A stretch of 16,212 nt of DNA from Candidatus Altiarchaeales archaeon (GTDB lineage Archaea > Altiarchaeota > Altiarchaeia > IMC4 > QMZM01), in contig QMZG01000009.1 in the NCBI GenBank assembly GCA_003663045.1, forward strand, positions 1 through 16,212, read 5' to 3'. The notes below the pieces were generated by a model. It was given only the letters and a program-made list of their open reading frames with translations, made no database searches and was not told the DNA's origin. The translations under genes were made by a program, and so were the position numbers. Each line of letters begins with the position of its first letter. Position 1 is the first letter of the stretch. This document shows, piece after piece, positions 54 to 14,038 of the stretch.

Positions 54-237
54 ACATAGCTATAATTATATTATGATAAAGAAGATAGATCTGAAAAAGT
101 TTGACAAGTTATCCACAGAGAAACAATACGAGAATTAGTTGGATAGAGAGTAGGTTATTTGAAAATATCTGTGATTATTACCTTTATTCTTATTTTAACT
201 GAATCTGATCTTCTGAAATATATCCCACAAAAAACAA

Positions 238-258
238 ATATTTATAGGAGTTTATATA
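238..258 (+). promoter_or_regulatory. TATA-like boxes (AAATATTTATA / TTTATATA), about 24-31 nt upstream of ATG 282. Candidate archaeal promoter giving a leaderless or short-leader virB3/4 mRNA.
   Basis: TTTATATA at 251-258 is centred about 27 nt upstream of ATG 282, which is the archaeal TATA-to-TSS spacing. GGGAGA at 274-279 could alternatively act as an SD. Confidence 0.3.
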
Positions 259-281
259 ATGTTGTAATTAACAAGGGAGAA

Positions 282-1160
282 ATGCCATATAAAATTCCCA
301 CTGACATAAGATATGAGGAAAGGTTATTTGGACCATTAACCGTGAAGCAATCCATATACGCCTTAGTAGCAGCTATTTTAATTCTCTATCTTATATTTTT
401 CTCCGGTTTAGAGTTTTATGTATACATCATACCTGTCTTTTTAGTAGCTATTCTGGCTATAGGCTTTATAATGTTCAATCTGGATATGTATCTCTTAAAT
501 TATCTCTACTATATTAAGGGGATGAAAGAGTCATCATGGATTTCACCCGCTGCAAGGAAGTTGATGGAGATTAGATCAATTAGAGCGGATGCGGTATTTT
601 TGAAGGACGGTCGCGTTCTTGGTGTGATAAAGGTAAAGCCCATTAACTTTGGGGTCCTGAGTAGAGAAGACCAAGATACGGTGATATATGGATTCTTAGA
701 ATTTATAAATTCATTGAGTTTTCCTATACAGATTGTGATGAAGTCTGTTAACCTTGATTTAAGTGATTATCTAGGAGCATTGAAGAGAAGGATTGTGCAA
801 AGAGATGATAAGATGGCTCTTGCCTATTATGAACATTTTTCAGAGTATATGTATGATTATATAAAGGCCAATAAAATTAATGACAGATTATTCTACATAA
901 TAGTTCCCGCCAAAAGGTTTGCAGATGAAAAGAAGACGATCATGAATCTGGAGGATAGATGTAAGGCGGTTATTGAAACCCTGGGTCTTTCGGGAATTAT
1001 TGCAGAAAGACTGGGTAATAGGCAACTTCTTAGCCTTTATTCATCCTATTTCACAGAGTCATTTAAATTAGATGAGGAATTTGTTTCGCCTATTACCATG
1101 TATAAAAGGATGTGGCATGAAGCACCTAAAAAGGTTTATTATGTAGAAGAGGAACTATAA
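282..1160 (+). CDS. VirB3-like membrane hairpin fused to the VirB4 N-terminal domain, i.e. the N-terminal part of a split T4SS VirB3-VirB4 ATPase. The ORF track starts it at TTG 159. ATG 282 is the more likely start.
   Basis: With ATG 282 the N-terminus reads MPYKIPTDIRYEERLFGPLTVKQSIYALVAAILILYLIFFSG...IPVFLVAILAIGFIMF. A short cytoplasmic segment, the 'LFxGLT' motif and two TM helices form the classic VirB3/TrbD/PrgI layout. The following stretch AVFLKDGRVLGVIKVKPINFGVLSREDQDTVIYGFLEFINSLSFPIQIVMKS matches the conserved start of the VirB4/TrbE N-terminal domain ('dGsl..v.r..g.d...s.ee.e.....l..ll..l'). ATG 282 has GGGAG 5 nt upstream and a TATA box at -27. The longer TTG start adds a hydrophobic 41 aa of uncertain reality. 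Confidence 0.7.
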   Translation: MPYKIPTDIRYEERLFGPLTVKQSIYALVAAILILYLIFFSGLEFYVYIIPVFLVAILAIGFIMFNLDMYLLNYLYYIKGMKESSWISPAARKLMEIRSIRADAVFLKDGRVLGVIKVKPINFGVLSREDQDTVIYGFLEFINSLSFPIQIVMKSVNLDLSDYLGALKRRIVQRDDKMALAYYEHFSEYMYDYIKANKINDRLFYIIVPAKRFADEKKTIMNLEDRCKAVIETLGLSGIIAERLGNRQLLSLYSSYFTESFKLDEEFVSPITMYKRMWHEAPKKVYYVEEEL

Positions 1161-1165
1161 TCAAA

Positions 1166-3481
1166 ATGGAATTTCCAGATATAAAGCTTCCCTCTGGTTT
1201 GTCTCTACCAATGTTTAAGAAAAAGAAAAAGACAACGGTAGAAGAGGGAGGGGTGTATGAATATGAGGACAAACTCATAGGGTATTTGACATCCCCTTCA
1301 ACCATAATAAAGCATATAGATGACATTCAGATAGAGAAATTTCACAGGATAATAGCTGCCATAAATTATCCTCGCTTGGTAGAACCGGGATGGTTAACTA
1401 GGTTAATTGAGATGAATCTGGATTTTGATTTAAGTATTCATATCTCACCCTATTCCATTGAATCTACTGTGAAATTATTGGAGACTGAGATAAAGAAGCA
1501 AAAAACTGACCTTTATGGACTAAAGGCTGAGGGTAAAATTGTACCTCAGGAATTGATACAGAAGCATGAGGATACCAAGGCTTTATTGGAAGCAATTCAA
1601 AATGGTACAGAGAAGATGTTTACAATGAGCCTTTATATTGATGCTAAGGCTTATGATAAAAAGACCCTGGAAAAGGTGACGACTATGATAAAAGCAAAGA
1701 TGAGTTCTATTATGATCACCCCAAAGGTTCCTTCCTTTCAGATGTATAAAGCACTTAAGTCTGTATTGCCCATACAGGATGACCAACTCCATATAACCAG
1801 AGAGATTACATCATCCGCCGTATCTGCATGCTTTCCCTTTGCTATCACCTCTTTAGAACACCACGCTACAGGAATTCTGATAGGATTTAATCAGATAAAT
1901 AATATACCCATTATAATTGATCCATTTGAATTAAGCAATCCCAATATACTAGTTCTGGGGACATCCGGCGGGGGTAAGAGTTATACTATAAAATTACTAT
2001 TGATGAGGGAATTCATGGAGGGCGTGGATATAAATATTATTGACCCGCAGGCCGAGTATACCGACTTGGTTAAGACATTTAAAGGAAAGACCATTAGAAT
2101 TGCCCCAGATTCTGACTCCATAATAAACCCATTTGATCTTATGGGTCAACCCCTGGATGAAAAGAAGCTTTCGCTTTTAGCATTCTTTAGGGTTCTTCTT
2201 GGGGAACTAAATGAGGGACAAAGGGCTATCCTCGATGATGCCATTGACAGTACCTATGAGGATGCTGGAATTACCAAGGATCCCAAGACCTGGTCAAAGA
2301 GGCCCCCAATATTAGAAGACCTTTATGATCATATTCTACCCCTGACCAGATCCGAAAAGGAGATCATCTATAGGCCTGCTATGTCTATTGTGAATAGACT
2401 AAAGGCCTATATATTTGGACCACTAAAATTTTTGAACCAGCAGACTAAGATAGAGCTTGACAACAGGATGATTTCCTTTGATATTAGGGATATACCAGAC
2501 ATTGGTAAAGGAACTATTATGTTCCTGATCTTGGAATATGTCTATACCCAGATGAAAAGAAGCAGGAAGAGAAAGGTCCTGGTTGTTGATGAGGCGTGGA
2601 GTGTTTTTTCTGCGGGCGATGAAGGTGAGTACATACTAAGACTAGTAAAGACCTGTAGAAAATTCAACCTATCATTGGTTATGATAACTCAAGACGTGGA
2701 GGACGTTCTCACCTCAAGGGCTGGCAGGGCAGTAATGAGTAACACCGCCACTAAGATATTACTAAAGCAGGATACTACGGTAGTTGATGCTATCAGTGAG
2801 AAATTTAAACTTAATGAGGCTGAAACTAGGTTCTTGAGGATTGCCAGCGTGGGTACAGCATTATTGATTGCAGAAAATCTTCGGGTGCCAATTCATGTTC
2901 AGGCATCCCCAGAGGAGCACAGGATTATAACCACCAGACCAGATGAACTCTTAGAAATGATAAGGAGAGAGGGAAGACCAGAGGTGGATAGAGAAATGAA
3001 ACCTGAGTTGGATATTACTGACGTGGTTCAGAATAAGATTAAATTAACCAATGAACAGATAGAGGCTTTAATGGATATAGGATTTACTGAAGTTAGGGTT
3101 AATTCACTGGATGGTAAGAGTGAACTCTACATCATAAAGAATGAGACAGAGGATACTGATGAACATTTTGTCTTACAGCATCTTATCTTCAAGGAGGTTA
3201 AAAAATATACGGACAAGGTACTGATACACTACACAAAGTTGCCAGACATAACATTTGAAACTCCCGATGGGAGATTAATTGCTATAGAGGTAATCGCCGA
3301 CTTGGGTTTAAAAGCAAACATAGAATCTATGGAAGAAAAACTACCTATATTAAAGAAATATAATGATTATTTCTATGTAGTCAAAGATCCTGAGCTGAGG
3401 AAATATGAAAGCTTTGGTGAGATCCTAGTTAGAACACAGGTTCCAACCAAGATCAGATCATACTTTGAAGCTGGCAGTTAA
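1166..3481 (+). CDS. virB4: VirB4/TrbE/CagE/TraC-family type IV secretion/conjugation ATPase (C-terminal ATPase part of a split VirB4). It carries an extra roughly 170-aa C-terminal extension made of a predicted wHTH plus a restriction-endonuclease-like (PD-(D/E)xK-type) fold.
   Basis: Walker A ILVLGTSGGGKSYT (nt 1958-1981 = GTSGGGKS). Walker B KVLVVDEAWSVF (DEAW at nt 2588-2599), the VirB4/TraC hallmark. Sensor motif LVMITQDVEDV ('ITQ'). The start is 5 nt after the stop of the VirB3/VirB4-N ORF. C-terminal aa about 620-771: LTNEQIEALMDIGFTEV (HTH-like), then EHFVLQHLIFKEVKKYTDKVLIHYTKLPDITFETPDGRLIAIEVIAD. The pattern E...D...E-V resembles the core of a PD-(D/E)xK / Hjc-like nuclease fold. 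That last point is an inference. Confidence 0.88.
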   Translation: MEFPDIKLPSGLSLPMFKKKKKTTVEEGGVYEYEDKLIGYLTSPSTIIKHIDDIQIEKFHRIIAAINYPRLVEPGWLTRLIEMNLDFDLSIHISPYSIESTVKLLETEIKKQKTDLYGLKAEGKIVPQELIQKHEDTKALLEAIQNGTEKMFTMSLYIDAKAYDKKTLEKVTTMIKAKMSSIMITPKVPSFQMYKALKSVLPIQDDQLHITREITSSAVSACFPFAITSLEHHATGILIGFNQINNIPIIIDPFELSNPNILVLGTSGGGKSYTIKLLLMREFMEGVDINIIDPQAEYTDLVKTFKGKTIRIAPDSDSIINPFDLMGQPLDEKKLSLLAFFRVLLGELNEGQRAILDDAIDSTYEDAGITKDPKTWSKRPPILEDLYDHILPLTRSEKEIIYRPAMSIVNRLKAYIFGPLKFLNQQTKIELDNRMISFDIRDIPDIGKGTIMFLILEYVYTQMKRSRKRKVLVVDEAWSVFSAGDEGEYILRLVKTCRKFNLSLVMITQDVEDVLTSRAGRAVMSNTATKILLKQDTTVVDAISEKFKLNEAETRFLRIASVGTALLIAENLRVPIHVQASPEEHRIITTRPDELLEMIRREGRPEVDREMKPELDITDVVQNKIKLTNEQIEALMDIGFTEVRVNSLDGKSELYIIKNETEDTDEHFVLQHLIFKEVKKYTDKVLIHYTKLPDITFETPDGRLIAIEVIADLGLKANIESMEEKLPILKKYNDYFYVVKDPELRKYESFGEILVRTQVPTKIRSYFEAGS

Positions 3482-3521: not shown

Positions 3522-4682
3522 ATGGCGTTGATACCATTGGGTGAGAAAGAGGCTGAAGGGGAGGTCTATGTCCCAGAGGAGAAAAAAACAGGGATAGATA
3601 TCATAGAAAAATTCATAGAAAAATGGAGGGATGGGATATTTACCATCCTCGTTATCGCTTTTATAACAGCAATTTTTATTCCAGATATATTCCTGGGGGA
3701 TATTGGGATTAATCTTAAGTTGATAATTTTTGTTATAATAATTTTTTTAATCATTAGGATATCAGTTGTAAGATTACTTGAGTATGAAAGAGCAGTTGTA
3801 TTCCGACTGGGTAAATTTCACAGGGTAGCTGGTCCGGGTTGGGAATTGATTTTTCCAATAGTGGAGAAGTTTGTGAGGACGGATCTGAGATTAAAGGTTT
3901 ATACCATAGAACCGCAGGAGATAGTCACAAAGGATAAGGTAAGATTCTTGGTCTCTCCGGAGATATTCATGTACGTTTCTAATCCAAAGGATGCGGTGAT
4001 AAATGTGGACAATTACGAGAAGGCAGTTCTTTCTTATGTAAATTCAGCCCTGACCCATGTGGGCGGTGATTCAACCTCCGATTACATAGTAGCGCATATG
4101 GATGATATAAGCGAGATGCTGGAGCACAGTGTTGAAAAAATATCCACATTACCGGGAAGGGAGTGGGGGGTAATTGTACCAAAAATTAAGTTGGGGTTCA
4201 TCAGATTTCCAGATGAGGTTCAGTCCGCTATGCATAAAAGGGTCGCAGCCGGGCAACTAAAGTTGGCGGCACATGAAAAGGCAGATGCTACTAAGATTGA
4301 AATAGACGCCATAAGAGAGGCTGGCTCAAAACTTACTGATCCAGCAATTACCTATCTGTACCTAGAAGCATTGGATAAGATAGCTAAAGGAAAAGCTACG
4401 AAGATGATATTGCCTCTAGAAATATCCAAGATTGCAGAGAGCATAACCAAGAGAACTGGTGCTTTACCAGAAACACCTGAGGTCAGTTTACCCAAAGATT
4501 TAATTCGGAAATATAAGGAGTCTGTGGATAGGTATGATAAAAAACTGAAGGAGATAGAGGATAAACTGGCTAAAAGGGAGATAAAAGAAAGGAAAGAAAA
4601 GTCAGAGAAAAAAGAAACTGGGGAAGAACTTAATGAATACAAGGAGAGGATTAGAGAGATAAAAAAGAGGATCGGTATATAA
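3522..4682 (+). CDS. SPFH / Band-7 (stomatin/prohibitin-like) membrane protein with an N-terminal TM anchor and a C-terminal K/E-rich coiled coil.
   Basis: N-terminal TM segments FTILVIAFITAIFIPDIF / LKLIIFVIIIFLIIRI are followed by the canonical stomatin signature VVRLLEYERAVVFRLGKFHRVAGPGWELIFPIVEKFVRTDLRLKVYTIEPQEIVTKDKV. The pattern 'V.EYERaVvfRlGk....PG...i.P..d.v..vdlr......p.q.v.TKD.v' is classic SPFH. The tail EIEDKLAKREIKERKEKSEKKETGEELNEYKERIREIKKRI is a coiled coil. Confidence 0.85.
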   Translation: MALIPLGEKEAEGEVYVPEEKKTGIDIIEKFIEKWRDGIFTILVIAFITAIFIPDIFLGDIGINLKLIIFVIIIFLIIRISVVRLLEYERAVVFRLGKFHRVAGPGWELIFPIVEKFVRTDLRLKVYTIEPQEIVTKDKVRFLVSPEIFMYVSNPKDAVINVDNYEKAVLSYVNSALTHVGGDSTSDYIVAHMDDISEMLEHSVEKISTLPGREWGVIVPKIKLGFIRFPDEVQSAMHKRVAAGQLKLAAHEKADATKIEIDAIREAGSKLTDPAITYLYLEALDKIAKGKATKMILPLEISKIAESITKRTGALPETPEVSLPKDLIRKYKESVDRYDKKLKEIEDKLAKREIKERKEKSEKKETGEELNEYKERIREIKKRIGI

Positions 4683-4853: not shown

Positions 4854-5126
4854 ATGGATGATAAAATCGATACACAGAATATCTACATCGATCCAGAGAA
4901 AAAATTTGTTACTATAAGAGTAAATCCAAGGATTTATAAGATTCATACTATTATGAACGCTGCGGATGAATTCATAGAGACGGCAGAATTGGTAATAGAC
5001 GGAGATCCAGAAAAGGAGATCATCGTCAAGATGATCCCAAAGAAGAAGGATCTGACCGAGGAAGAATTGCTAGAATATGCCTACAAATTTAACACTTATT
5101 TGATATCCCATAGTGCTACGAGATAG
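4854..5126 (+). CDS. Small hypothetical protein (90 aa), acidic, no TM. It sits in a 170-nt / 100-nt intergenic context, implying its own promoter.
   Basis: ORF MDDKIDTQNIYIDPEKKFVTIRVNPRIYKIHTIMNAADEFIETAELVIDGDPEKEIIVKMIPKKKDLTEEELLEYAYKFNTYLISHSATR. TATA-like TATAAAA at 4841-4847 and TTGATTAATTT at 4813-4823 lie upstream. No recognisable motif. Coding status rests on ORF length and codon usage similar to its neighbours. Confidence 0.5.
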   Translation: MDDKIDTQNIYIDPEKKFVTIRVNPRIYKIHTIMNAADEFIETAELVIDGDPEKEIIVKMIPKKKDLTEEELLEYAYKFNTYLISHSATR

Positions 5127-5226: not shown

Positions 5227-6990
5227 ATGGACGACTTTGAAAGATTTTGGATGGAAAGGGAAAGAGAAGAACTGGAGATAGAACCGGAGAAACTTAGAAA
5301 GGTTCTATCGAAGATACTTAAAGAGTTTAATCTGGAGTTAAAATCAATTGAAGAAACCGAAGAGAAAGACCTGGTAGCTACATGCTTAGATAAATTGGGG
5401 AGGGAGGTAACATCCTTAATAAGAATTCGTGCCGATACCGAAGGGATCGAAAGGGATGATGTAGAGGACTTTTATGAGGATATGGTAGAGAAAAGGGCTG
5501 TAGCTGCTATCTTTATCACTACCTCTTATTTTTTTAAGGATGCCAAGGATTTTGTAGAAGGGCTTCCCATAAGGCTGGTTGATAGAACACAGTTATCAGA
5601 AATTATAGCTGAGATCGAGGCCATAAAGGTTGAGAAGGCATTTGTTTCTGGGATGAATGACTCACAGGTGGTGAAATATTTCCAAAAAAAGACAAAGGGG
5701 AGGGTATTAGGTAGATTTGGAATGCCTGAGAATATCGAAGAGATAGATCGCAGGTATCTACCCATGGGGTTTTTCAGTCTCAAGAAAATCGAAGAAAACG
5801 TTGAAAGGAGAAAATTTGCATACATAGATCTCAGCAGTGGCGATCTCTTCTATATAGATGAAGGACGTATAAAGAAGGATGATATCATAAAGAATATTCT
5901 TAATCTTCCTCCAGAATCCAGGGAACACCTCATGGATTTGATTGAGCATGGAGAACTGCCTCATGAACATATAGATGGGAAGTATTTGCTCATACTGAAA
6001 AAAAGAGGGTTATTAGGAGAGTATGAAGAGGGTAGAGGGGGTGGAATCCTCAGTACTATGGTAAATGGAATCATGAGTTTAGTGATGATAATAATCGATA
6101 CAGCAGGGGAATTTATTGGCATTCCAAGATCAGAACATGTTCCAAAGGGGGGTACTGCTCAACCAAAGAGAGTTAAAGCGAGAGTCAATATCCCCATCTT
6201 TGATCAAGCCTATAATCTGGAGAATTTTATGGAGGTTTCAAATGCCAGTGAGGAATTTGATCCGGATCCCATGAAGTATAAACCAGAGGAGGTAGAGGAT
6301 ATTCTGAGGAAAATCACCGGGTATGAGGTAAAATTCGAGAATATGGTTTATTTTCCCTATTACCTGTGCAAATATTCTGGTCCAAGGGGGGAGAGGTACA
6401 GAAGGTTATATTCAGTGAAATTTAAAGAATTTTTTCCGAGGCCGGGAACATATAATGTATTGTATCATATTATAGACAAGTTTCCAGAATTGCCTTATCT
6501 CATACTGGCTGCTCTTTATATCCATTTTAATATCAGTGAAACGGAAAAATTAATGCATGTATTCTCTTCTTCCTTTCTTTTCCTGATTATATGCGTTTTC
6601 ACAGGGACGTTGTTAAAGGCTATCTTCAAGACGGAAAGAGTAACACCCTACTACGGTGTATCAGTTTTTAGATACGGATTTCCATCCATGCACAGTTTAG
6701 CCTCCATCGGTGCTATAGGGTTTGTATATTTTATAGAACCCATGGGGCCTTTACTTTCACTAGTACTGGTACCAATAGGTCTGCTCTATGTCTATTCCAG
6801 AATCAAGATAGGCGCTCACAGCGTGACCGATGTTATTGGGGGGGCAATCATTGGCCTTATCATGGGGATAATCTCTGGTATGCATCTACTGAAGATTCAT
6901 CTTCCATATCCTTTGGAGTTGATATCCACCACACTTTTTGTTATCATGCTATTTATCTTTATTATAATTAGAATTAAGTATATACACTAA
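5227..6990 (+). CDS. Fusion protein with an N-terminal Mrr-type restriction-endonuclease-fold domain (Mrr_cat-like), a central linker/wHTH-like region, and a C-terminal polytopic PAP2-superfamily (type 2 phosphatidic-acid phosphatase / haloperoxidase fold) membrane domain.
   Basis: N-terminus: LSKILKEFNLELKSIEETEEKDLVATCLDKLGREVTSLIRIRADTEGIERDDVEDFYEDMVEKRAVAAIFITTSYFFKDAKDFVEGLPIRLVDRTQLSEII. This follows the Mrr_cat pattern (D..D core, 'QcKr'-like LIRIR, 'gi.vTTs.Ft.eA..fa....i.LidgeeL'). Note R replaces the usual catalytic K. The C-terminal TM bundle carries the three PAP2 motifs: KAIFKTERVTP (KX6R-like, aa 464-474), FPSMHS (PSGH-type, nt about 6682-6693), and YSRIKIGAHSVTD (SRX5HX3D, nt 6796-6831). 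Confidence 0.8.
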   Translation: MDDFERFWMEREREELEIEPEKLRKVLSKILKEFNLELKSIEETEEKDLVATCLDKLGREVTSLIRIRADTEGIERDDVEDFYEDMVEKRAVAAIFITTSYFFKDAKDFVEGLPIRLVDRTQLSEIIAEIEAIKVEKAFVSGMNDSQVVKYFQKKTKGRVLGRFGMPENIEEIDRRYLPMGFFSLKKIEENVERRKFAYIDLSSGDLFYIDEGRIKKDDIIKNILNLPPESREHLMDLIEHGELPHEHIDGKYLLILKKRGLLGEYEEGRGGGILSTMVNGIMSLVMIIIDTAGEFIGIPRSEHVPKGGTAQPKRVKARVNIPIFDQAYNLENFMEVSNASEEFDPDPMKYKPEEVEDILRKITGYEVKFENMVYFPYYLCKYSGPRGERYRRLYSVKFKEFFPRPGTYNVLYHIIDKFPELPYLILAALYIHFNISETEKLMHVFSSSFLFLIICVFTGTLLKAIFKTERVTPYYGVSVFRYGFPSMHSLASIGAIGFVYFIEPMGPLLSLVLVPIGLLYVYSRIKIGAHSVTDVIGGAIIGLIMGIISGMHLLKIHLPYPLELISTTLFVIMLFIFIIIRIKYIH

Positions 6991-8987
6991 TCATCATCTC
7001 TTCCAAATTCCTCTTCTTTCCTTTCTCTGGTATCTATACGGACATCAATAATGCTTCTCAAACCATCTTCTGTGTTAAACACAATAATTCCACTGTATAA
7101 TCTTCTTTCTATATCCTCTTTTGTAGTGATCACCATTTTTATTATCTTCTCTTCACCCCTCTCCAATCTGAATCTATTTTCCTTATAGTTTATAAATATT
7201 CCAGCTGTAAGTAGTTCTTCATCATATACTATAACCCTTGAGAATGAATGATCCTCATCGTTTCTTAAGGCGATTTCTACCAATCTGGTCTCACCGGGCT
7301 GAACATTCACAGTAAGGGATGGTGGTACCGGTTTTTGTGGCAGGGTTGCCGTGACTATCCCCTTTCTCCTCTTCCTGGGAACCTCGGATGGAGCACGAGA
7401 ACGTATCTCATCCATCATGTATGGCTTTGCCTTCTCTTCTGAGACAACCCTGAATCCGTATTCATCCCCGATATATTTTTCTATTGAGGTCTTTCTCTCC
7501 CTCGCTGCTTTGACAAGTAATTCATAAAGATTTTCATTTCTCTGAATCTTTTCTATGGGTATCTCGCCCTTGATATTCGCCATACCTCTTAATGCGTCCT
7601 TTAGGGTTGCCCTGATTGGCCTAATTGGAGCATGAGAGGGTATCTTCTCTTCTCTTGGCTTAACCCTCTTAGTGACTCCGGGTTTGATGTAAGGAACTCC
7701 CACTCTTACACCTTTTTTAGAAGTAATTTTGAATCCGTATTGTATATTAACAAATTCCTCTACTGACATCCTTTTCTCCCCTGCAACACGAATTAGTGAG
7801 TTATGAAGCCTCTCATTTTTTTGGATTTCCTCCAGGGATATTTCACCCCTGATGTTGGCCATCTTTTTTAATGTAGAACCAATCTCCTCTCTGGACAACT
7901 CTCCTTTCTCAACGACCCTCTCATAGCCCCTCACACCAACCGCTGCTCTTGGTTCTTCTTCGGGCTTTTCTTCCTCTTTTTTCTCAAGTTCTATCTCAGG
8001 TTTCTCGAAGAATACTATCATCGGCGCCAGAGACTCGATAAAGATTACTGAGATGACAGCAAATGCACCAAACCAATTCATTAACCCGAATATGATCAAT
8101 GGCGATATTATCAGTAGAAGGGCCCCAGAGATATTTACCAGATCAGAGATTTCCGGTATGAGGGTAGTAAGAATCTGACTACCTACAGCTATTATTACCA
8201 ATGCAAGGGCATATCCTACCGGAAGAAAGATCCAGAAGAGCAGTTGCTTTATGATTATCTTTCCTATGTTCTTTGTAAGATAGAACAAACTGAGGAATAT
8301 TGCAAATGGAAAAAATATGATTAAAAAGATTAAAAGGATGTATCTAGCAACTAAGATGGCAAATATACCTAAAGTTAAGATAAATGTGAATATCAAAAAG
8401 GGTATACTTATTGCTATATCAATCCAGATAAAATCTACCGTCCTATAATTTAGATAATCTATGGCATTCTTATATGTAATCCCTATATCTAAGGGCCCCT
8501 GGGATAGAATACCCCTAGTTAGAACCTGCGATACATCGAGTAGTAACTGCATTATATGTAGGGAAAGTGAAATGATAACCATACCCACCAACAGCCTTAA
8601 CATCATGGACTTTGCCCTTGATCTGCCTCTTGGTGATCCTGAAAAGAACATCAGATAGATCCCTGTCAGTACTATGGCTGCGATATAGAATGGCTCCAGG
8701 ACTTTGACGAAGTAACCCCCAATATCTATTATCATCGGGTCTCTTAACGGAATTTCTTCCAAGAGATATGCATGAAGGTTATCATAGATTTCATCCTTCA
8801 TAACATCTATCTTGCCCCAGATCATTCCCAAGAATGTCAACCTTCTTGATAGTTCTGAAAAGAATTTTAGTATGGCATCGGCAGTAGACTCAAGAAATTC
8901 ACCAAATTCTGGCGGAATTGCGTATGCTACAGATGATAAGAGTAATGATACCGCGAATATAAATATTATAAATGTTCTACATTTCAT
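6987..8987 (-). CDS. Polytopic membrane protein, paralog 5 of 5 (VirB6/TrbL/TcpH/CedA-like by architecture). It has a roughly 340-aa hydrophilic C-terminal extension containing an internally duplicated roughly 65-aa module. It is the last gene of the minus-strand operon.
   Basis: Signal peptide MKCRTFIIFIFAVSLLLSSVAYA. Family motifs VLEPFYIAAIVLTGIYLMFFSGSPRGRSRAKSMML and FFPFAIFLSLFYLTKNIGKIIIKQLLFWI, with at least 6 TM helices. After aa about 325 comes an acidic linker EKPEIELEKKEEEKPEEEPR. Two repeats follow: (aa 371-435) STLKKMANIRGEISLEEIQKNERLHNSLIRVAGEKRMSVEEFVNIQYGFKI and (aa 460-523) ATLKDALRGMANIKGEIPIEKIQRNENLYELLVKAARERKTSIEKYIGDEYGFRV. A predicted beta-rich domain and a DDD tail end the protein. 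The stop overlaps the convergent Mrr-PAP2 stop. Confidence 0.8.
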   Translation of the reverse strand: MKCRTFIIFIFAVSLLLSSVAYAIPPEFGEFLESTADAILKFFSELSRRLTFLGMIWGKIDVMKDEIYDNLHAYLLEEIPLRDPMIIDIGGYFVKVLEPFYIAAIVLTGIYLMFFSGSPRGRSRAKSMMLRLLVGMVIISLSLHIMQLLLDVSQVLTRGILSQGPLDIGITYKNAIDYLNYRTVDFIWIDIAISIPFLIFTFILTLGIFAILVARYILLIFLIIFFPFAIFLSLFYLTKNIGKIIIKQLLFWIFLPVGYALALVIIAVGSQILTTLIPEISDLVNISGALLLIISPLIIFGLMNWFGAFAVISVIFIESLAPMIVFFEKPEIELEKKEEEKPEEEPRAAVGVRGYERVVEKGELSREEIGSTLKKMANIRGEISLEEIQKNERLHNSLIRVAGEKRMSVEEFVNIQYGFKITSKKGVRVGVPYIKPGVTKRVKPREEKIPSHAPIRPIRATLKDALRGMANIKGEIPIEKIQRNENLYELLVKAARERKTSIEKYIGDEYGFRVVSEEKAKPYMMDEIRSRAPSEVPRKRRKGIVTATLPQKPVPPSLTVNVQPGETRLVEIALRNDEDHSFSRVIVYDEELLTAGIFINYKENRFRLERGEEKIIKMVITTKEDIERRLYSGIIVFNTEDGLRSIIDVRIDTRERKEEEFGRDDD

Positions 8988-10110
8988 TTTCTATTCTTTT
9001 CCCGCTCTCAAAGTATGCCGTTGTCATTGCTGCAGGCTTCAGGAAGATGGCCGATATCAGAGCAAGAGAACTTATCCAGCTCATTATTCCCATGGCTATT
9101 AATGGGGCAAGGATTAACATTAAAAATCCAGAGAATACCACAAAGGTGTTTAAATCCAGCAATACCCCTGTGGCAGGTTCCGGGATAGAGAATATGCTAT
9201 TATAGGCAATCCAGGTAACCAGGAGTATTATAGCATCGATAACTGGGACAAATATCCAGATAATTGTTTGATTAAGAAGGATTCTCCCAACCCTTTTGGT
9301 AGCAAAGAAGGAATAAAGCAGGATCGTAAATGGGAAGAATATTGTTAGGAGAATCACCATAAAATATCTGATCGCCAGCACCATGAGAACACCGGCCGGT
9401 AGGAGAATGAGTAGGGCTAAGAATGGAAGTCCAATAAAGATCTCAAAAAATGTCACTACCAAGAAGTATTTTATAAAGAATTCCTTAGCCAACATAAACA
9501 TCTCAACGTTTATGGGAGATTCCGGGCTGGGAATTGATAAAAGAACTGATGTAAGATAGTGGGAGGTCTCTAAGAGCATCTCTATTATGGGTAACGTTAA
9601 TGTGATAATCCCAAGCCCGAGAATCAGTTTTATGAGGGTGGATTTTGCCCGTGCCCTGCCCAGTGGCGATCCGGAAACGAAAAGGAGATATACTGAGGTT
9701 ATCAGTATGGCAAGCGCATAAAATGGTTGAAGTATACTGATAAAGAGATTTAGGATCCCCAAAACTGCAGGGGCCCTTAACAGTGCTGGTGTATCCTTTA
9801 TTGTATTTCCCTGAAAAAGATCCCTCTGGTATATGAAGGGGATGAGGTTTTCAGAATATATCTTCATTAGCGCATCAATTCTATCTGCGATATAAAAATA
9901 GAAATCTATCCGCCTCGTTATCTCCATGCCCATCTTTGGGTACTCTCTCGAGACCTCATCCATCAGATCCTTCAACTTTGATGCTAACGACGGTTCAAGT
10001 GCGGGGGAAGCATGCTGTGCCGTGACATGGATGATACTAACCGTAACCAGAAGCATGACAATTGCTAATCTTCCCATTATTTTTTCTTTACCTTTTCCAT
10101 TCATTTTCAA
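8977..10110 (-). CDS. Polytopic membrane protein, paralog 4 of 5 (VirB6/TrbL-like candidate). The track start is TTG 10110. ATG at 10104 (MNGKGKEK...) or 10077 (MGRLAIV...) is the more likely start.
   Basis: Signal peptide or TM GRLAIVMLLVTVSIIHVTAQHA. Family motifs ILQPFYALAILITSVYLLFVSGSPLGRARAKSTLIKL and FFPFTILLYSFFATKRVGRILLNQTIIWI, with multiple TM helices. It abuts the upstream paralog with no gap. GGGGG lies 8-12 nt upstream of ATG 10104. Confidence 0.8.
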   Translation of the reverse strand: MKMNGKGKEKIMGRLAIVMLLVTVSIIHVTAQHASPALEPSLASKLKDLMDEVSREYPKMGMEITRRIDFYFYIADRIDALMKIYSENLIPFIYQRDLFQGNTIKDTPALLRAPAVLGILNLFISILQPFYALAILITSVYLLFVSGSPLGRARAKSTLIKLILGLGIITLTLPIIEMLLETSHYLTSVLLSIPSPESPINVEMFMLAKEFFIKYFLVVTFFEIFIGLPFLALLILLPAGVLMVLAIRYFMVILLTIFFPFTILLYSFFATKRVGRILLNQTIIWIFVPVIDAIILLVTWIAYNSIFSIPEPATGVLLDLNTFVVFSGFLMLILAPLIAMGIMSWISSLALISAIFLKPAAMTTAYFESGKRIENEM

Positions 10111-11064
10111 TTAAGGCAAAAACCCCCTGAATAATCTTACAAATATGAAGGGGGTAAGCATTAACATCAACAAACCGGCCAATTCCATGATGAATTTTAA
10201 TCCAGTAGGAACGATAAAGCTCGTTATTAAATCTGTGAGATTCATTCCTATCGCTATTATAACGAGCACGAATGCCATCGCAGCCTGAGCTAATGTCCAG
10301 AGAAGTGTTTGTTCCAGTAGCAATCTTCCCATTCCCCGGGAGGGTAAAAAGGAATAGAGAAGGATTGTAAATGGCAATATCATGGAGAGGATAGCTACCA
10401 TGTAGAACCTCAATTTTAGGATAAGGAATATCCCCTCCAAAAGAGCATAAGGGATAAAGAGGAGGGGAATTCCGGCCCTCTCCACGCCCAGTGACCAGCC
10501 ACTGGCACTGTGCGACATTATATGCCTGCCCATGTTGAGTATATATTCCGTTGCATGTATAAAAGGATCATTCTTGTTTACCGGAGCCAATGATAGAATA
10601 TTTAGGGTAATTGCCTCCGAGATACCAAAGAATATCATCAGAATATAGGGCGAAACGGATATGATTGCAATGCCGATAATCAACAGTAATAGGGAGGATT
10701 TTGCACTGGCTCTCTTTTCTGGTGAGCCAGAAAAGAATATCAGGTAGATTCCAATGAGGATTATTACTGTAACATATATTGCCTGTAAAATGGAGATGAA
10801 GTAATCCATAATCTTCTTGGTATTTGATTCCAGTATTGAGGGATTCTCCAGTATCAGATCATCTATATTCCTAAGTGTTTCTATCTTTTCCATTATCAAC
10901 CTTTCGTAATTTTCAGATACCTTTTCTCTAAGGAATGCCTCCGCTGCCTCTTCGGTCAGTGGATAGATGATCCCCGATACCGAATTTGACAAAAACAGCA
11001 ATATTACAATAACTATCAATAATGAAATTCCTCTGATTTTTGGGTTGATTGAATCTTTTTTCAT
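10111..11064 (-). CDS. Polytopic membrane protein, paralog 3 of 5 (VirB6/TrbL-like candidate).
   Basis: Signal or TM LLIVIVILLFLSNSVSG. Motifs ILQAIYVTVIILIGIYLIFFSGSPEKRASAKSSLLLL and ILPFTILLYSFLPSRGMGRLLLEQTLLWT. C-terminal ...FVRLFRGFLP. The start ATG (11062-11064) overlaps the TGA of the upstream paralog (ATGA-type coupling). GGAGA lies 8 nt upstream. Confidence 0.82.
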   Translation of the reverse strand: MKKDSINPKIRGISLLIVIVILLFLSNSVSGIIYPLTEEAAEAFLREKVSENYERLIMEKIETLRNIDDLILENPSILESNTKKIMDYFISILQAIYVTVIILIGIYLIFFSGSPEKRASAKSSLLLLIIGIAIISVSPYILMIFFGISEAITLNILSLAPVNKNDPFIHATEYILNMGRHIMSHSASGWSLGVERAGIPLLFIPYALLEGIFLILKLRFYMVAILSMILPFTILLYSFLPSRGMGRLLLEQTLLWTLAQAAMAFVLVIIAIGMNLTDLITSFIVPTGLKFIMELAGLLMLMLTPFIFVRLFRGFLP

Positions 11065-11990
11065 GGTAAAAATCTCCTAACCATTGTTATTAGCATTATG
11101 GGTGATATGATTACCACCAGAAATGTTGATATACCTATTATAGTTCTTAGATCCCCGCTAAAGCCTAAAATAGTGATTCCCATATTTGCAGTCACTATAA
11201 GCAAGGCAATTATTACCTGGAGGAATGTCCACAATATGGTCTGTTCCACTATAAACCTGCCAATGTCCCTCGTTATGTTAAATGTATACAGGAAGATGCC
11301 TATGGGGAATATCAATGTGAAGATCAAAAGAAGGAGATATCTCAGAGTAAGAACAGAAAAGATACCTATTATCATGAAGAATATGAATAAAAGGAAGAGG
11401 TGACCCCCTTCGAATGTGGTTAATGTGGATGCAGTAAAGATTCTCACAAGATCATTTATTGTGTCCAGGAATATCCTCCCTATCCCCACTGGACTCTTAT
11501 CCAGTATATCCTTAGACAATTCATAGGAAACATTTGAAATCAGTTGCAGTATGGGGAAGGTGAGGGAAACAATTACCATACTGGCAATCAACTTGGGAAA
11601 GAGTAATTTCGCTTTTCTTCTACCCTTTGGCGATCCGGAAAGAAACATTAGGTAGATTCCAGTAATTAATATTGCCATAACATATAATGGTTCTAAGACG
11701 GTGATGAAGTATTCTATTATATGATTTATCAGATGATCATCAAGTGGGGGATTCATCAGGATTAAATCACGCAGACTATCAAAGATTTCCAATAATCCAT
11801 GACCTACCGGTTTTCCAATAAACGTCCCATGGAGCAGGTAATAGATAAGCAGGATGAATATCCCCCTGAATTTTAATTCGATTGCTTCATGCTTCACGGC
11901 CATTTCCCCAAACCATTCTGAGGTTATTGAGGGGATTAATATGATGCAGATGCATACCCCCATTATCAATTTTTTATTTATTTTTCTCAT
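11061..11990 (-). CDS. Polytopic membrane protein, paralog 2 of 5 (VirB6/TrbL-like candidate).
   Basis: Signal or TM LIMGVCICIILIPSITSE. Motifs VLEPLYVMAILITGIYLMFLSGSPKGRRKAKLLFPKL and FPIGIFLYTFNITRDIGRFIVEQTILWT. C-terminal ...MVRRFLP. 4-nt overlaps at both ends (11061-11064, 11987-11990). Confidence 0.82.
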   Translation of the reverse strand: MRKINKKLIMGVCICIILIPSITSEWFGEMAVKHEAIELKFRGIFILLIYYLLHGTFIGKPVGHGLLEIFDSLRDLILMNPPLDDHLINHIIEYFITVLEPLYVMAILITGIYLMFLSGSPKGRRKAKLLFPKLIASMVIVSLTFPILQLISNVSYELSKDILDKSPVGIGRIFLDTINDLVRIFTASTLTTFEGGHLFLLFIFFMIIGIFSVLTLRYLLLLIFTLIFPIGIFLYTFNITRDIGRFIVEQTILWTFLQVIIALLIVTANMGITILGFSGDLRTIIGISTFLVVIISPIMLITMVRRFLP

Positions 11991-12919
11991 GGTAAGAAAT
12001 CCCTCAAAAAGCTTACGGTAGCTATAGGGACCACTATCAGGGCTATAATTCCTCCCAATTCCAACAAAATCAATACCTCACGCGTCAACAAGGAGGAAAA
12101 CACCACGATTATGGTAGCTATTGAGGTTAATGCTATTGCCTCCGTTACCTGTACAGAAATCCAGAGCAGTGTTTGTTCCATCATCCTTCTGCCTATCCCT
12201 CTGGTAGGCATGAAGAGATAGAGGAATATCGTCAATGGGAATACTATGGTAAATAGAGCAACGACGATATACCTTGAAAATATAACAAACAGGAGTGCAG
12301 AAATAATTATCAGAGAAAGAAACAGAAATGGTACCGATGCCTCTGAAGAATACCATGTGATATTATGAAATTTTGACATAAGATAATCTATTGGATTTAT
12401 GTCTTTATCTAAGGGTAGTAGAATGCCTACAGGATCACCCGGTCCCTGAGATATTATACCATCCGATAGGGTTTCAGAAAAACTGAAAATCACACTCATT
12501 ATATACGGTGAGATAGCAATTAATACCATTGCTATAATAATTCCCGGTAATAAAGATTTTATCTTTGCCCTGATTCCGGGCGAACCAGAAAAAAATATCA
12601 TATATATCCCACTGAAGATTATGGCAAAGACAAACAATGGCTCCATGATGGTCACAATATATCTGGTAATACCCAAGACATCTGGATTCATTGGGTTCGG
12701 ATTCAGTAGCAATATCTCCACAAAATGATCCCTGCATATATCCATGGCATATACTACAAGATCCTCACCAATCTTGTTAAGATTCATTCTCAGAAGAAAA
12801 TCTAATAGTACCTTAACTGCTGCCGCTTCCCCAATGAAAGCTGACGATGATGATGCGAGGAATAAAACTACTATAACCGGGAATGTTAATTTAAACAAGA
12901 TCTTCCTTATTGACTTCAT
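11987..12919 (-). CDS. Polytopic membrane protein, paralog 1 of 5 (VirB6/TrbL-like candidate).
   Basis: Signal peptide LTFPVIVVLFLASSSSAFIGEAAA. Motifs IMEPLFVFAIIFSGIYMIFFSGSPGIRAKIKSLLPGI (nt about 12553-12594) and VFPLTIFLYLFMPTRGIGRRMMEQTLLWI. C-terminal ...SFLRDFLP. Start ATG is at 12917-12919, 12 nt after the upstream gene. Confidence 0.82.
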   Translation of the reverse strand: MKSIRKILFKLTFPVIVVLFLASSSSAFIGEAAAVKVLLDFLLRMNLNKIGEDLVVYAMDICRDHFVEILLLNPNPMNPDVLGITRYIVTIMEPLFVFAIIFSGIYMIFFSGSPGIRAKIKSLLPGIIIAMVLIAISPYIMSVIFSFSETLSDGIISQGPGDPVGILLPLDKDINPIDYLMSKFHNITWYSSEASVPFLFLSLIIISALLFVIFSRYIVVALFTIVFPLTIFLYLFMPTRGIGRRMMEQTLLWISVQVTEAIALTSIATIIVVFSSLLTREVLILLELGGIIALIVVPIATVSFLRDFLP

Positions 12920-12931
12920 TTTTCTAAAGGG

Positions 12932-14038
12932 TTATTTTCTGATGAATTTGAAATATCCCGCTACCAAGATTATCACAGAGATTAAGAGTATCAGGTAATT
13001 GAGCCATTCCACTTTCATGCAATCTGGATCTTCTCCACTCTTACAGTCTGGATCACATTTTCCATCCTCTACCTTATCACAGTAACCATCCTCTCCTCCA
13101 GAAGCACAGTCTTGAGGACAATTGAGATAATTTTCAATACCCATCTCACAGATGTTGTCGTTATTGCAGATACAATCTATATCCCCCTCCCTATGACAGT
13201 CGGGGTCACATATCCCATCTCTTATTCCATCACAATAATTGTCCCTGGAGCCAGAACAGTCCTCTGGACAATTCCAGTAGTTTTCACCATGGTCACAGAC
13301 ACCATTTTTATTGCAGGTTTCTATTACGATAACCTCTATCGTATCTTTTACGGAGATATTCTCAAAATCGATAACCTCAAGGGTAATCTTATGAATTCCA
13401 GCAGAGAGATTATCAATCCTCGTTATATCTTTATCTAATTCCTTCCCATCCAATTTCCAGATAAGGGTATATGGCTTTTTACCACCATAGACAGAGGGAA
13501 TCAGGTTGATGAAATCCCCCCTTAGGTATGTAGTATTCTTTGGCGATAGGATAGATACTGTTAAAGGAATTTTCTTTATTACTACCAGAGAGATATCCTC
13601 CCTTACCTCCAAACCGGTACTATCCCGGACCTTGAGGGTAATCTCATGCGTGTTCACAGACAGGTTCTTTATAGTGAATTCTCTATCTCTTCCTATAACC
13701 CCGTCTATATTCGATACCCATTCAAATCTGTAGGGTGGTGTGCCACCAAATACAAACGCCTCAAAGTTTATAGGACCTTCTTCATAGATGTGTGGATAAC
13801 CAAATGGAGATATAATAGATGCCGTGAGTTTTTGGGTTATACCCTCGTCCCCTACTAATTCATCCAATGGATCTGGAGTAATTTTAATATTTTCATGACT
13901 TGTATTATCTGGATCTAATTCGGGATATGCGGGATGAGAGTGGTAGGAATGGCATCTCTCACAGACTCCCCCAGCGTAATAAATTAATGCAAGCAGCATT
14001 ACTACTATTTCTATTCCGGTTGTCATAATCCTCCTCAT
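12932..14038 (-). CDS. Secreted/surface protein. It has an N-terminal signal-anchor, two PKD/Ig-like domains ('GGxPPYxFxW' type), a duplicated Cys/Asp-rich module pair (candidate Ca-binding, TSP3/EGF-like), and a C-terminal TM anchor.
   Basis: N-terminus TGIEIVVMLLALIYYAGG. PKD-like signatures FVFGGTPPYRFEWVSNIDG and YGGKKPYTLIWKLDGKEL. Sequons include NLS, NTT and NIS. The Cys-rich array at aa 242-340 (nt 13019-13315) is built as [CNKNGVCDHGENYWNCPEDCSG + DNYCDGIRDGICDPDCHREGDIDC] then [CNNDNICEMGIENYLNCPQDCASG + DGYCDKVEDGKCDPDCKSGEDPDC]. C-terminal TM WLNYLILLISVIILVAGYF followed by KFIRK. Confidence 0.8.
   Translation of the reverse strand: MRRIMTTGIEIVVMLLALIYYAGGVCERCHSYHSHPAYPELDPDNTSHENIKITPDPLDELVGDEGITQKLTASIISPFGYPHIYEEGPINFEAFVFGGTPPYRFEWVSNIDGVIGRDREFTIKNLSVNTHEITLKVRDSTGLEVREDISLVVIKKIPLTVSILSPKNTTYLRGDFINLIPSVYGGKKPYTLIWKLDGKELDKDITRIDNLSAGIHKITLEVIDFENISVKDTIEVIVIETCNKNGVCDHGENYWNCPEDCSGSRDNYCDGIRDGICDPDCHREGDIDCICNNDNICEMGIENYLNCPQDCASGGEDGYCDKVEDGKCDPDCKSGEDPDCMKVEWLNYLILLISVIILVAGYFKFIRK

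Follow-up and report, generated by a model that had tools for sequence, protein, structure and literature searches.

An Mrr-MID-PAP2 Protein in Altiarchaeota

The stretch of DNA analyzed here in full, referred to below as the window, comprises 16,212 nucleotides from a Candidatus Altiarchaeales archaeon (contig QMZG01000009.1, assembly GCA_003663045.1) and contains an open reading frame (ORF) for a protein that joins an Mrr-like domain, a module referred to as MID, and a PAP2 membrane domain. The initial annotation had described this gene as an unusual fusion of an Mrr-type domain to a PAP2 phosphatase. The fusion is real and lies in a single continuous ORF: both domains are matched by Pfam, and the same Mrr_cat+PAP2 architecture is found in 18 full-length homologues (41-98% identity; NCBI, ENA, JGI, and Logan assemblies). 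The features of the gene are as follows; TM stands for transmembrane.

5227..6990, plus strand: whole ORF (587 aa plus stop, ATG-initiated), Mrr-like domain, MID module, and PAP2 membrane domain
5275..5604, plus strand: Mrr_cat-type PD-(D/E)XK fold domain, aa 17-126, with D48, R66, R68, and an acidic helix
5368-5370, plus strand: D48, retained
5422-5424, plus strand: R66, in place of the catalytic E/Q
5428-5430, plus strand: R68, at the Lys position
5617..6033, plus strand: N-terminal half of MID (MIDN), aa 131-269, long β-hairpins with invariant IDRRYxP and YIDL, then a winged helix-turn-helix
5884-6027, plus strand: winged helix-turn-helix in MIDN, aa 220-267
6034..6162, plus strand: linker, aa 270-312, poorly conserved (identity 0.32), low-confidence (pLDDT 34-46), amphipathic, not a conserved TM segment
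6163..6486, plus strand: C-terminal half of MID (MIDC), aa 313-420, a β-hairpin unit with invariant D347, Y351, P377-Y378 (YFPYY), and F399
6487..6987, plus strand: PAP2 membrane domain, aa 421-587, six predicted TM helices
6616..6648, plus strand: motif C1, K464-x6-R471-x2-P474, invariant in 30/30 PAP2-fused sequences
6682..6693, plus strand: motif C2, P486-S487-M-H489
6796..6831, plus strand: motif C3, S524-R525-x5-H531-x3-D535, with H531 the family's nucleophilic His

The ORF list and translation give a reading frame that is unbroken from Mrr through MID to PAP2, beginning with a strongly charged N-terminus (MDDFERFWMEREREELE...) without a signal peptide. In independent assemblies, Mrr-MID-PAP2 proteins are 576-607 aa long, and scanning a single genome for each GTDB species recovered 10 loci, one per species-level genome; nine of these carry the names Altiarchaeota, Altiarchaeales, or Altiarchaeia, and the tenth is a generic "Euryarchaeota archaeon". 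The PAP2-fused sequences number 30 in all, and the window's locus is present near-identically in several metagenomes. An assembly or annotation error that joined two separate genes therefore deserves practically no weight. The architecture recurs across independent assemblies and across the 10 species-level genomes, which rules out such an artefact, and the stretch between Mrr and PAP2 is itself conserved. Continuity of the frame over aa ~130-440 had been pointed out before, and this holds; these ~300 aa are, however, not a mere gap between two domains but a module that is itself conserved and includes a winged helix. Mean pairwise identity is even over Mrr, MIDN, MIDC, and PAP2 (0.50-0.54) and drops only in the linker.

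The homologues carry automatic NCBI names, either "phosphatase PAP2 family protein" or "restriction endonuclease". A search of the literature library found no paper on Mrr-MID-PAP2 proteins, none mentioning Mrr and PAP2 together, in agreement with the earlier remark that no described protein was known to combine the two folds, and none pairing Altiarchaeota with VirB4. The gene is real, conserved, and Altiarchaeota-specific, and encodes one membrane protein of three modules. Judged from the homologues collected, its architecture is new, joining familiar domains to one module that has not been characterised, and is confined to one archaeal phylum.

The Mrr-like Domain

Pfam Mrr_cat (PF04471) matches aa 17-126 with 45.7 bits (cut-off 21), and the domain has the PD-(D/E)XK α/β fold, so that the profile search supports the Mrr fold proposed for residues ~25-130. 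The D...(E/Q)-x-K triad of this fold is incomplete: D48 is present, and both the E/Q and the Lys positions are changed. Close PAP2-fused orthologues retain D48 and, where the metal-binding E/Q would be, invariably have Arg (R66); in an alignment of all Mrr domains of the family, both D48 and R66 are also gone from the more distant PAP2-fused sequences. The Lys position is R68 in the window protein and varies among R/E/D/S/W/Q in orthologues; an arginine in place of the catalytic lysine is thus correct for this sequence but is not a trait of the family. By one alignment, the canonical triad is kept in some soluble paralogues (P0044, D..EVK; P0131, D..QVK), and P0131 scores 120 bits against Mrr_cat compared with 45.7 bits for the window protein.

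Because the canonical triad is gone, nuclease activity has probably been lost, and the domain is most likely a binding or sensing module rather than a nuclease, as had been suggested. The domain also conserves an acidic helix peculiar to the family (D78-V-E80-D81-x-Y83), for which reason an unconventional active site is formally possible.

The domain shares its sequence profile and fold with the Mrr/MspJI/AspBHI-type PD-(D/E)XK domains (PF04471) of type IV, modification-dependent enzymes. As in E. coli Mrr and the endonucleases fused to a winged helix (PMC11037411), the nuclease fold is paired with a winged helix. Unlike these enzymes, the window protein has the reverse domain order, with the nuclease fold first, has R66-x-variable in place of the E/Q-x-K half of the triad, is membrane-anchored, and shows no sign of a restriction function or defence context. 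Its degenerate catalytic residues also recall the inactive restriction-endonuclease domains NA-iREase1 (PF22722). The window protein matches these weakly (17.6 bits, under the cut-off of 27) and lacks an attached NACHT/STAND NTPase; its paralogues give stronger matches, and 26/116 family members match NA-iREase1.

The MID Module and Its Family

MID, ~290 aa long, is built of a winged helix-turn-helix flanked by two long β-hairpin units and is as well conserved as Mrr and PAP2. Apart from the winged helix, it has no match in Pfam, NCBIfam, PDB, or viral structures, and a MID profile run against 1.84 billion cluster representatives retrieved 117 proteins only. A PDB sequence-profile search with the family alignment returned PAP2 enzymes and no Mrr-type or MID relatives; annexin matches in this search (E ~0.1) were dismissed as chance.

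MIDN and MIDC always occur together, separated in soluble forms by a linker of ~25 aa, and are found in five architectures: Mrr-MID-PAP2; Mrr-MID with a different membrane domain (P0019 and P0022); soluble Mrr-MID (370-490 aa), the form seen in most members; MID alone (~260 aa); and MID with two or three Cdc48-like AAA+ domains. In P0019 (L004 2318-3964) and P0022, PAP2 is swapped for another polytopic domain, the VirB4-SPFH-orf90 context being the same; the match of this domain to the ArsP_1 permease family is under the cut-off (22.5 bits). The soluble Mrr-MID paralogues named in the sources are altiarchaeal too. They occur as tandem pairs (~380 aa + ~460 aa) or beside a 612-aa AAA+ protein (L007 8001-10614, L009 3946-6460, and L008 8001-11043). 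We also considered a type IV secretion system (T4SS) link for the soluble paralogues and rejected it; they lie in a conserved housekeeping neighbourhood, not beside VirB4. From these profile matches, MID defines a small unstudied protein family that is expanded in Altiarchaeota.

The PAP2 Domain

Pfam PAP2 (PF01569) matches aa 478-549 with 35.2 bits (cut-off 27.2), and phmmer aligns the window protein with PgpB (5jki; E 3.8e-4). The domain has the PAP2 core helix-bundle fold, its closest structural matches being PgpB and LpxE. A homologue search with the PAP2 domain alone returned nothing. All three diagnostic motifs noted in the initial annotation are present, C1 at 464-474, C2 at 486-489, and C3 at 524-535; measured against the signature KX6RP, PSGH, and SRX5HX3D, the window protein reads KX6RxxP in C1 and PSMH in C2. 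The 30 PAP2-fused sequences span down to ~35% identity, and K464, R471, P474, P486, S487, H489, R525, H531, and D535 are invariant in all of them, with S524 present in 29/30. As these PAP2 residues are invariant while the Mrr triad is degenerate, the alignments indicate that selection acts on phosphatase chemistry and not on nuclease chemistry.

This pattern bears on the improbable alternative that PAP2 is a membrane anchor only, the Mrr-MID head being the working part and phosphatase chemistry irrelevant. Such a role would agree with P0019 and P0022, where the VirB4-SPFH-orf90 context is unchanged but Mrr-MID carries another membrane domain (weak ArsP_1), and with the many family members, the majority, that have no membrane domain at all. 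An anchor would, however, have no need of the nine invariant catalytic residues, H489, H531, and D535 included.

Predicted Membrane Topology

The six predicted TM helices, here a to f, span aa 422-434, 439-467, 488-500, 507-528, 533-554, and 561-585. Motif C1 closes helix 439-467, which makes this helix the counterpart of TM3 in PgpB; with a single helix (TMa) ahead of it, the protein has no canonical TM1, and at the other end it has gained a helix beyond the last canonical one. Because of the missing TM1 and the extra last helix, both termini are predicted to lie on the catalytic side of the membrane. A TM helix at aa 283-303, which would put residues 305-420 outside the cell, was rejected: this segment has a family hydropathy of ~1.05, a mean of 3.6 charged residues, µH 0.40, and pLDDT 34-46, and helix 276-297 is amphipathic. 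The linker at aa 270-312 is hydrophobic in the window sequence, and the ~25-aa linker stands in its place in soluble relatives; the constant pairing of MIDN with MIDC as one module likewise counts against a TM helix here. If aa 283-303 is not a TM segment, residues 1-420 all lie on one side of the membrane, which is likely the cytoplasmic one because there is no signal peptide and the relatives are of cytoplasmic type (AAA+ fusions).

Lys and Arg (K+R) counts of the loops, given as means over 19 orthologues, are distributed as follows.

Catalytic side, segment before TMa: 4.11
Catalytic side, C1-C2 loop: 4.74
Catalytic side, C3 loop: 2.68
Catalytic side, C-tail: 1.95
Opposite side, loop a-b: 1.0
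Opposite side, loop c-d, with conserved D/E: 0.05
Opposite side, loop e-f: 0.68

PAP2 active sites are inherently K/R-rich, which inflates the catalytic-side count, but the bias remains when the three catalytic K/R are left out (~6.4 vs 1.7). Five bacterial PAP2 enzymes whose active sites are known to face the periplasm (PMC7413402) served as controls and show a pattern opposite to that of the window family. Their loops equivalent to c-d hold 3 K/R in E. coli PgpB (PRRRTLT), 1 in YbjG, 2 in LpxT, 4 in B. subtilis PgpB (VKHLPFLSKHKKM), and 2 in LpxE, and the cytoplasmic tails of the three E. coli enzymes hold 3-6. Loop charges and helix parity together argue, with fair but not strong probability, that the PAP2 active site shares the cytoplasmic side of the membrane with the DNA-binding-type head, in an N-in/C-in topology. 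Action at the extracytoplasmic face, a premise of the initial annotation, is thus probably wrong here.

The opposite arrangement would retain the canonical orientation: the short first helix would be interfacial and the site would face outward, where the enzyme would recycle or remodel polyprenyl-diphosphate or envelope lipids for a pilus or mating structure, the head being only regulatory. The outward-facing sites of the bacterial controls agree with this arrangement, as do the top structural matches to PgpB and LpxE, the shortness of TMa (with one exception, no more than 13-20 uncharged residues per sequence), and the presence of a PMT-family glycosyltransferase gene and pilin-like genes in the same locus. 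It would nevertheless require supposed cytoplasmic loops with 0.05 and 0.68 K/R and conserved acidic residues, together with a K/R-rich C-tail outside the cell, the reverse of all five controls. Moreover, TMa is uniformly hydrophobic, with at most 1 charge and no amphipathic character (µH 0.21). Trimming of lipid head groups by PAP2 for a lipid-containing conjugative-type pilus was also considered and finds no support in PMC9905601, where archaeal conjugative-type pili retain their phosphate/sugar head groups. We regard an outward-facing site as rather unlikely, though it is the strongest of the alternatives.

Compared with the membrane PAP2 phosphatases B. subtilis PgpB/YodM (5jki/6fmx), A. 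aeolicus LpxE (6ebu), and E. coli PgpB, the window protein thus lacks the canonical first TM helix, has an extra C-terminal helix and reversed loop charges that predict a cytoplasm-facing site, and carries a 420-aa extension that is predicted to be cytoplasmic and is of nucleic-acid-binding type.

Genomic Context

The Mrr-MID-PAP2 gene is flanked in the window by genes for T4SS-like and membrane-scaffold proteins.

159..1160, plus strand: PrgI (VirB3-like) fused to a TraC/VirB4 N-terminal-like region
1166..3481, plus strand: VirB4-family T4SS ATPase (NCBIfam conju_CD1110, 306.7 bits; Pfam P-loop_TraG), syntenic in 10/16 loci
3522..4682, plus strand: SPFH/Band_7 membrane-scaffold protein (Pfam Band_7, 88.8 bits), syntenic in 10/16 loci
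4854..5126, plus strand: orf90, a conserved 90-aa protein not assigned to any family, always between SPFH and the Mrr-MID-PAP2 gene
6987..8987, minus strand: 666-aa polytopic TrbL_3/VirB6-like protein, convergent, its 3' end overlapping the Mrr-MID-PAP2 stop codon by 4 nt

Synteny was compared over 16 distinct loci by tblastn with the window's own proteins, and every locus has one of three arrangements, in which the Mrr-MID-PAP2 gene is co-oriented and contiguous with VirB3-VirB4 and/or the SPFH-orf90 pair. These are PrgI(VirB3-like)-VirB4-gene; PrgI-VirB4-SPFH-orf90-gene, to which the window belongs; and SPFH-orf90-gene, with VirB4 absent from the 5-8 kb upstream flank and upstream genes unrelated to T4SS. 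One locus of the third type has VirB4 and PrgI ~600 bp downstream on the other strand. VirB4 is adjacent in 10/16 loci, so that the fusion does often recur next to VirB4, as had been asked of it; recurrence next to defence genes was not seen. In one altiarchaeal genome, a separate 354-aa PAP2_3-family protein (L021 1861-2925, minus strand) lies ~2 kb upstream of the SPFH-orf90-Mrr-MID-PAP2 trio.

The extended locus also includes a VirB2/TrbC-like pilin, four pilin/VirB6-like paralogues, and a large VWA protein, and no relaxase, VirD4, or integrase was seen in it. The Mrr-MID-PAP2 protein itself matched no known T4SS component family (VirB1-11, VirD4, relaxase) in Pfam and NCBIfam scans. The 159-1160 (plus strand) product combines a PrgI domain with positions 22-278 of NCBIfam VirB4_plasma and is TraC-like in homologues; because it matches N-terminal VirB4/TraC, the VirB4 N-terminal domain seems to be encoded apart and fused to VirB3. 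Relative to the window, VirB4 is 71-90% and PrgI 56-85% identical among Altiarchaeota, compared with 41-60% for the Mrr-MID-PAP2 protein (L001, L005, L016-L020, and L025), and these values suggest that the T4SS-like ATPase is strongly constrained throughout this phylum.

In the convergent gene (6987-8987, minus strand), the N-terminal ~300 aa of the VirB6-like protein are 39% identical (E 3e-34) to a 309-aa tandem paralogue encoded within 8977-12919 (minus strand), and nearby 317- and 377-aa paralogues give weak T4SS_pilin matches. The predicted soluble tail in the C-terminal half of the VirB6-like protein holds two ~55-aa copies of a sequence not assigned to any family, …MANIRGEISLEEIQKNERLH…YGFKITS… and …MANIKGEIPIEKIQRNENLY…YGFRVVS…. 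A 637-aa β-propeller (YVTN-repeat) ORF at 14035-15948 (minus strand) corresponds to part of a product that is called as 1866 aa, with a weak VWA match, in near-identical contigs (L010-L012).

In other genomes the locus is flanked by Lon, TsaD, tRNA-splicing endonuclease, and ribosomal protein L39, or by chorismate synthase, fumarase, and EPSP synthase. Because of these housekeeping flanks, we consider the locus to be chromosomal, and it appears to be vertically inherited. The mobile-element island assumed in the initial annotation is not borne out: the locus is syntenic in divergent Altiarchaeota, the window has no tRNA gene, Rfam family, or visible integrase, and GC around the gene is uniform (0.35-0.43), with no compositional break.

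The gene set resembles the "domesticated" archaeal Ced/Ted systems, which are chromosomal VirB2/4/6 sets whose DNA-processing proteins are called "elusive" and for which no relaxase homologue is known (PMC9905601). The window likewise has a minimal chromosomal set of VirB2-like pilin, VirB4, and VirB6-like protein with no relaxase or VirD4 seen, and the homology between its VirB6-like and pilin-like proteins echoes the relationship of VirB6/VirB2 and CedA/CedA1 described for Ced/Ted systems. It differs in belonging to another archaeal phylum and adds a VirB3-like PrgI, SPFH, and Mrr-MID-PAP2, none of which was found by term searches of PMC9905601.

Relation to Defence Systems

An abortive-infection or defence effector had been proposed as one role for the fusion, alongside envelope remodelling for mating, which is a conceivable alternative. 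In a defence system, the Mrr-like/winged-helix head would sense foreign or modified DNA, upon which PAP2 would deplete an essential lipid phosphate or carrier and damage the membrane. A cytoplasm-facing PAP2 site beside a DNA sensor would fit this sensor-effector design. Some soluble paralogues, in which the canonical Mrr triad is intact, may be restriction enzymes of type IV, and the NA-iREase1 matches among family members, together with the MID-AAA+ fusions, resemble conflict-system architectures. The only PADLOC-DB match of the window protein, weak and confined to the Mrr part, is to mREase_IV (25.7 bits, E 1.6e-6, aa 54-130), and its SPFH, orf90, and VirB6-like neighbours have no match in that database. 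Beyond the Mrr domain, then, no defence system is matched, and neither defence genes nor mobile-element hallmarks lie nearby. Defence genes are typically patchy in distribution, whereas conserved synteny, housekeeping flanks, one locus per species-level genome, and 41-60% identity look vertical, and the even evolution of the four structured segments leaves no sign of a fast-evolving sensor. With no positive support in the synteny or in the neighbours, a defence function is unlikely, a little more so than an outward-facing PAP2 site.

VirB4 (1166-3481, plus strand) matches the PADLOC mad8 (92 bits) and HerA models. These matches most likely reflect a shared HerA/FtsK-type P-loop ATPase domain, not a defence role.

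A Proposed Role for the Mrr-MID-PAP2 Protein

The explanation that best accounts for these observations, to which we assign a probability of roughly 0.4, is that the protein is a three-module, cytoplasm-facing receptor or tether with a PAP2 phosphatase beside a T4SS-like/SPFH assembly. It would be anchored N-in/C-in, with the nucleic-acid-binding-type head and the PAP2 site both at the cytoplasmic face, and would serve as a membrane-anchored nucleic-acid receptor or tether next to this assembly, to which it may be functionally coupled. The PAP2 domain may dephosphorylate an inner-leaflet lipid phosphate or another phosphomonoester at the cytoplasmic face of the membrane. A bolder version, in which the inward-facing site acts on bound DNA and so substitutes for the missing relaxase, strikes us as highly improbable, more so than the anchor-only role.

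Several points weigh against the receptor or tether. For the degenerate Mrr domain and the winged helix, DNA binding is presumed solely because of their folds, and the topology is based on the positive-inside rule and helix counting, to be set against the short TMa and the outward-facing sites of all five bacterial controls. The T4SS link is not universal, 5-6/16 loci being without VirB4 in their 5-8 kb upstream flanks, and the soluble paralogues sit by genes unrelated to T4SS loci (acetolactate synthase, KARI, GatB, and a methyltransferase). Finally, the other membrane domain of P0019 and P0022 in the same context implies that at least one lineage can do without PAP2 chemistry.

If the membrane domain were only a lineage-specific variant of an anchor, the protein would be of modest, taxon-restricted interest. 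Its anatomy is nonetheless more interesting than first described. MID, which joins Mrr domains, AAA+ ATPases, or membrane domains, is a previously undescribed module. The well-studied bacterial membrane PAP2 phosphatases act at the outer face of the membrane; an inward-facing, fully conserved PAP2 site would, if true, widen the possible PAP2 substrates to inner-leaflet archaeal lipid intermediates or non-lipid phosphoesters. A membrane protein whose head combines a nuclease fold with a winged helix, and whose gene often adjoins VirB4 in this phylum, would be a testable candidate for a part in archaeal DNA transfer.

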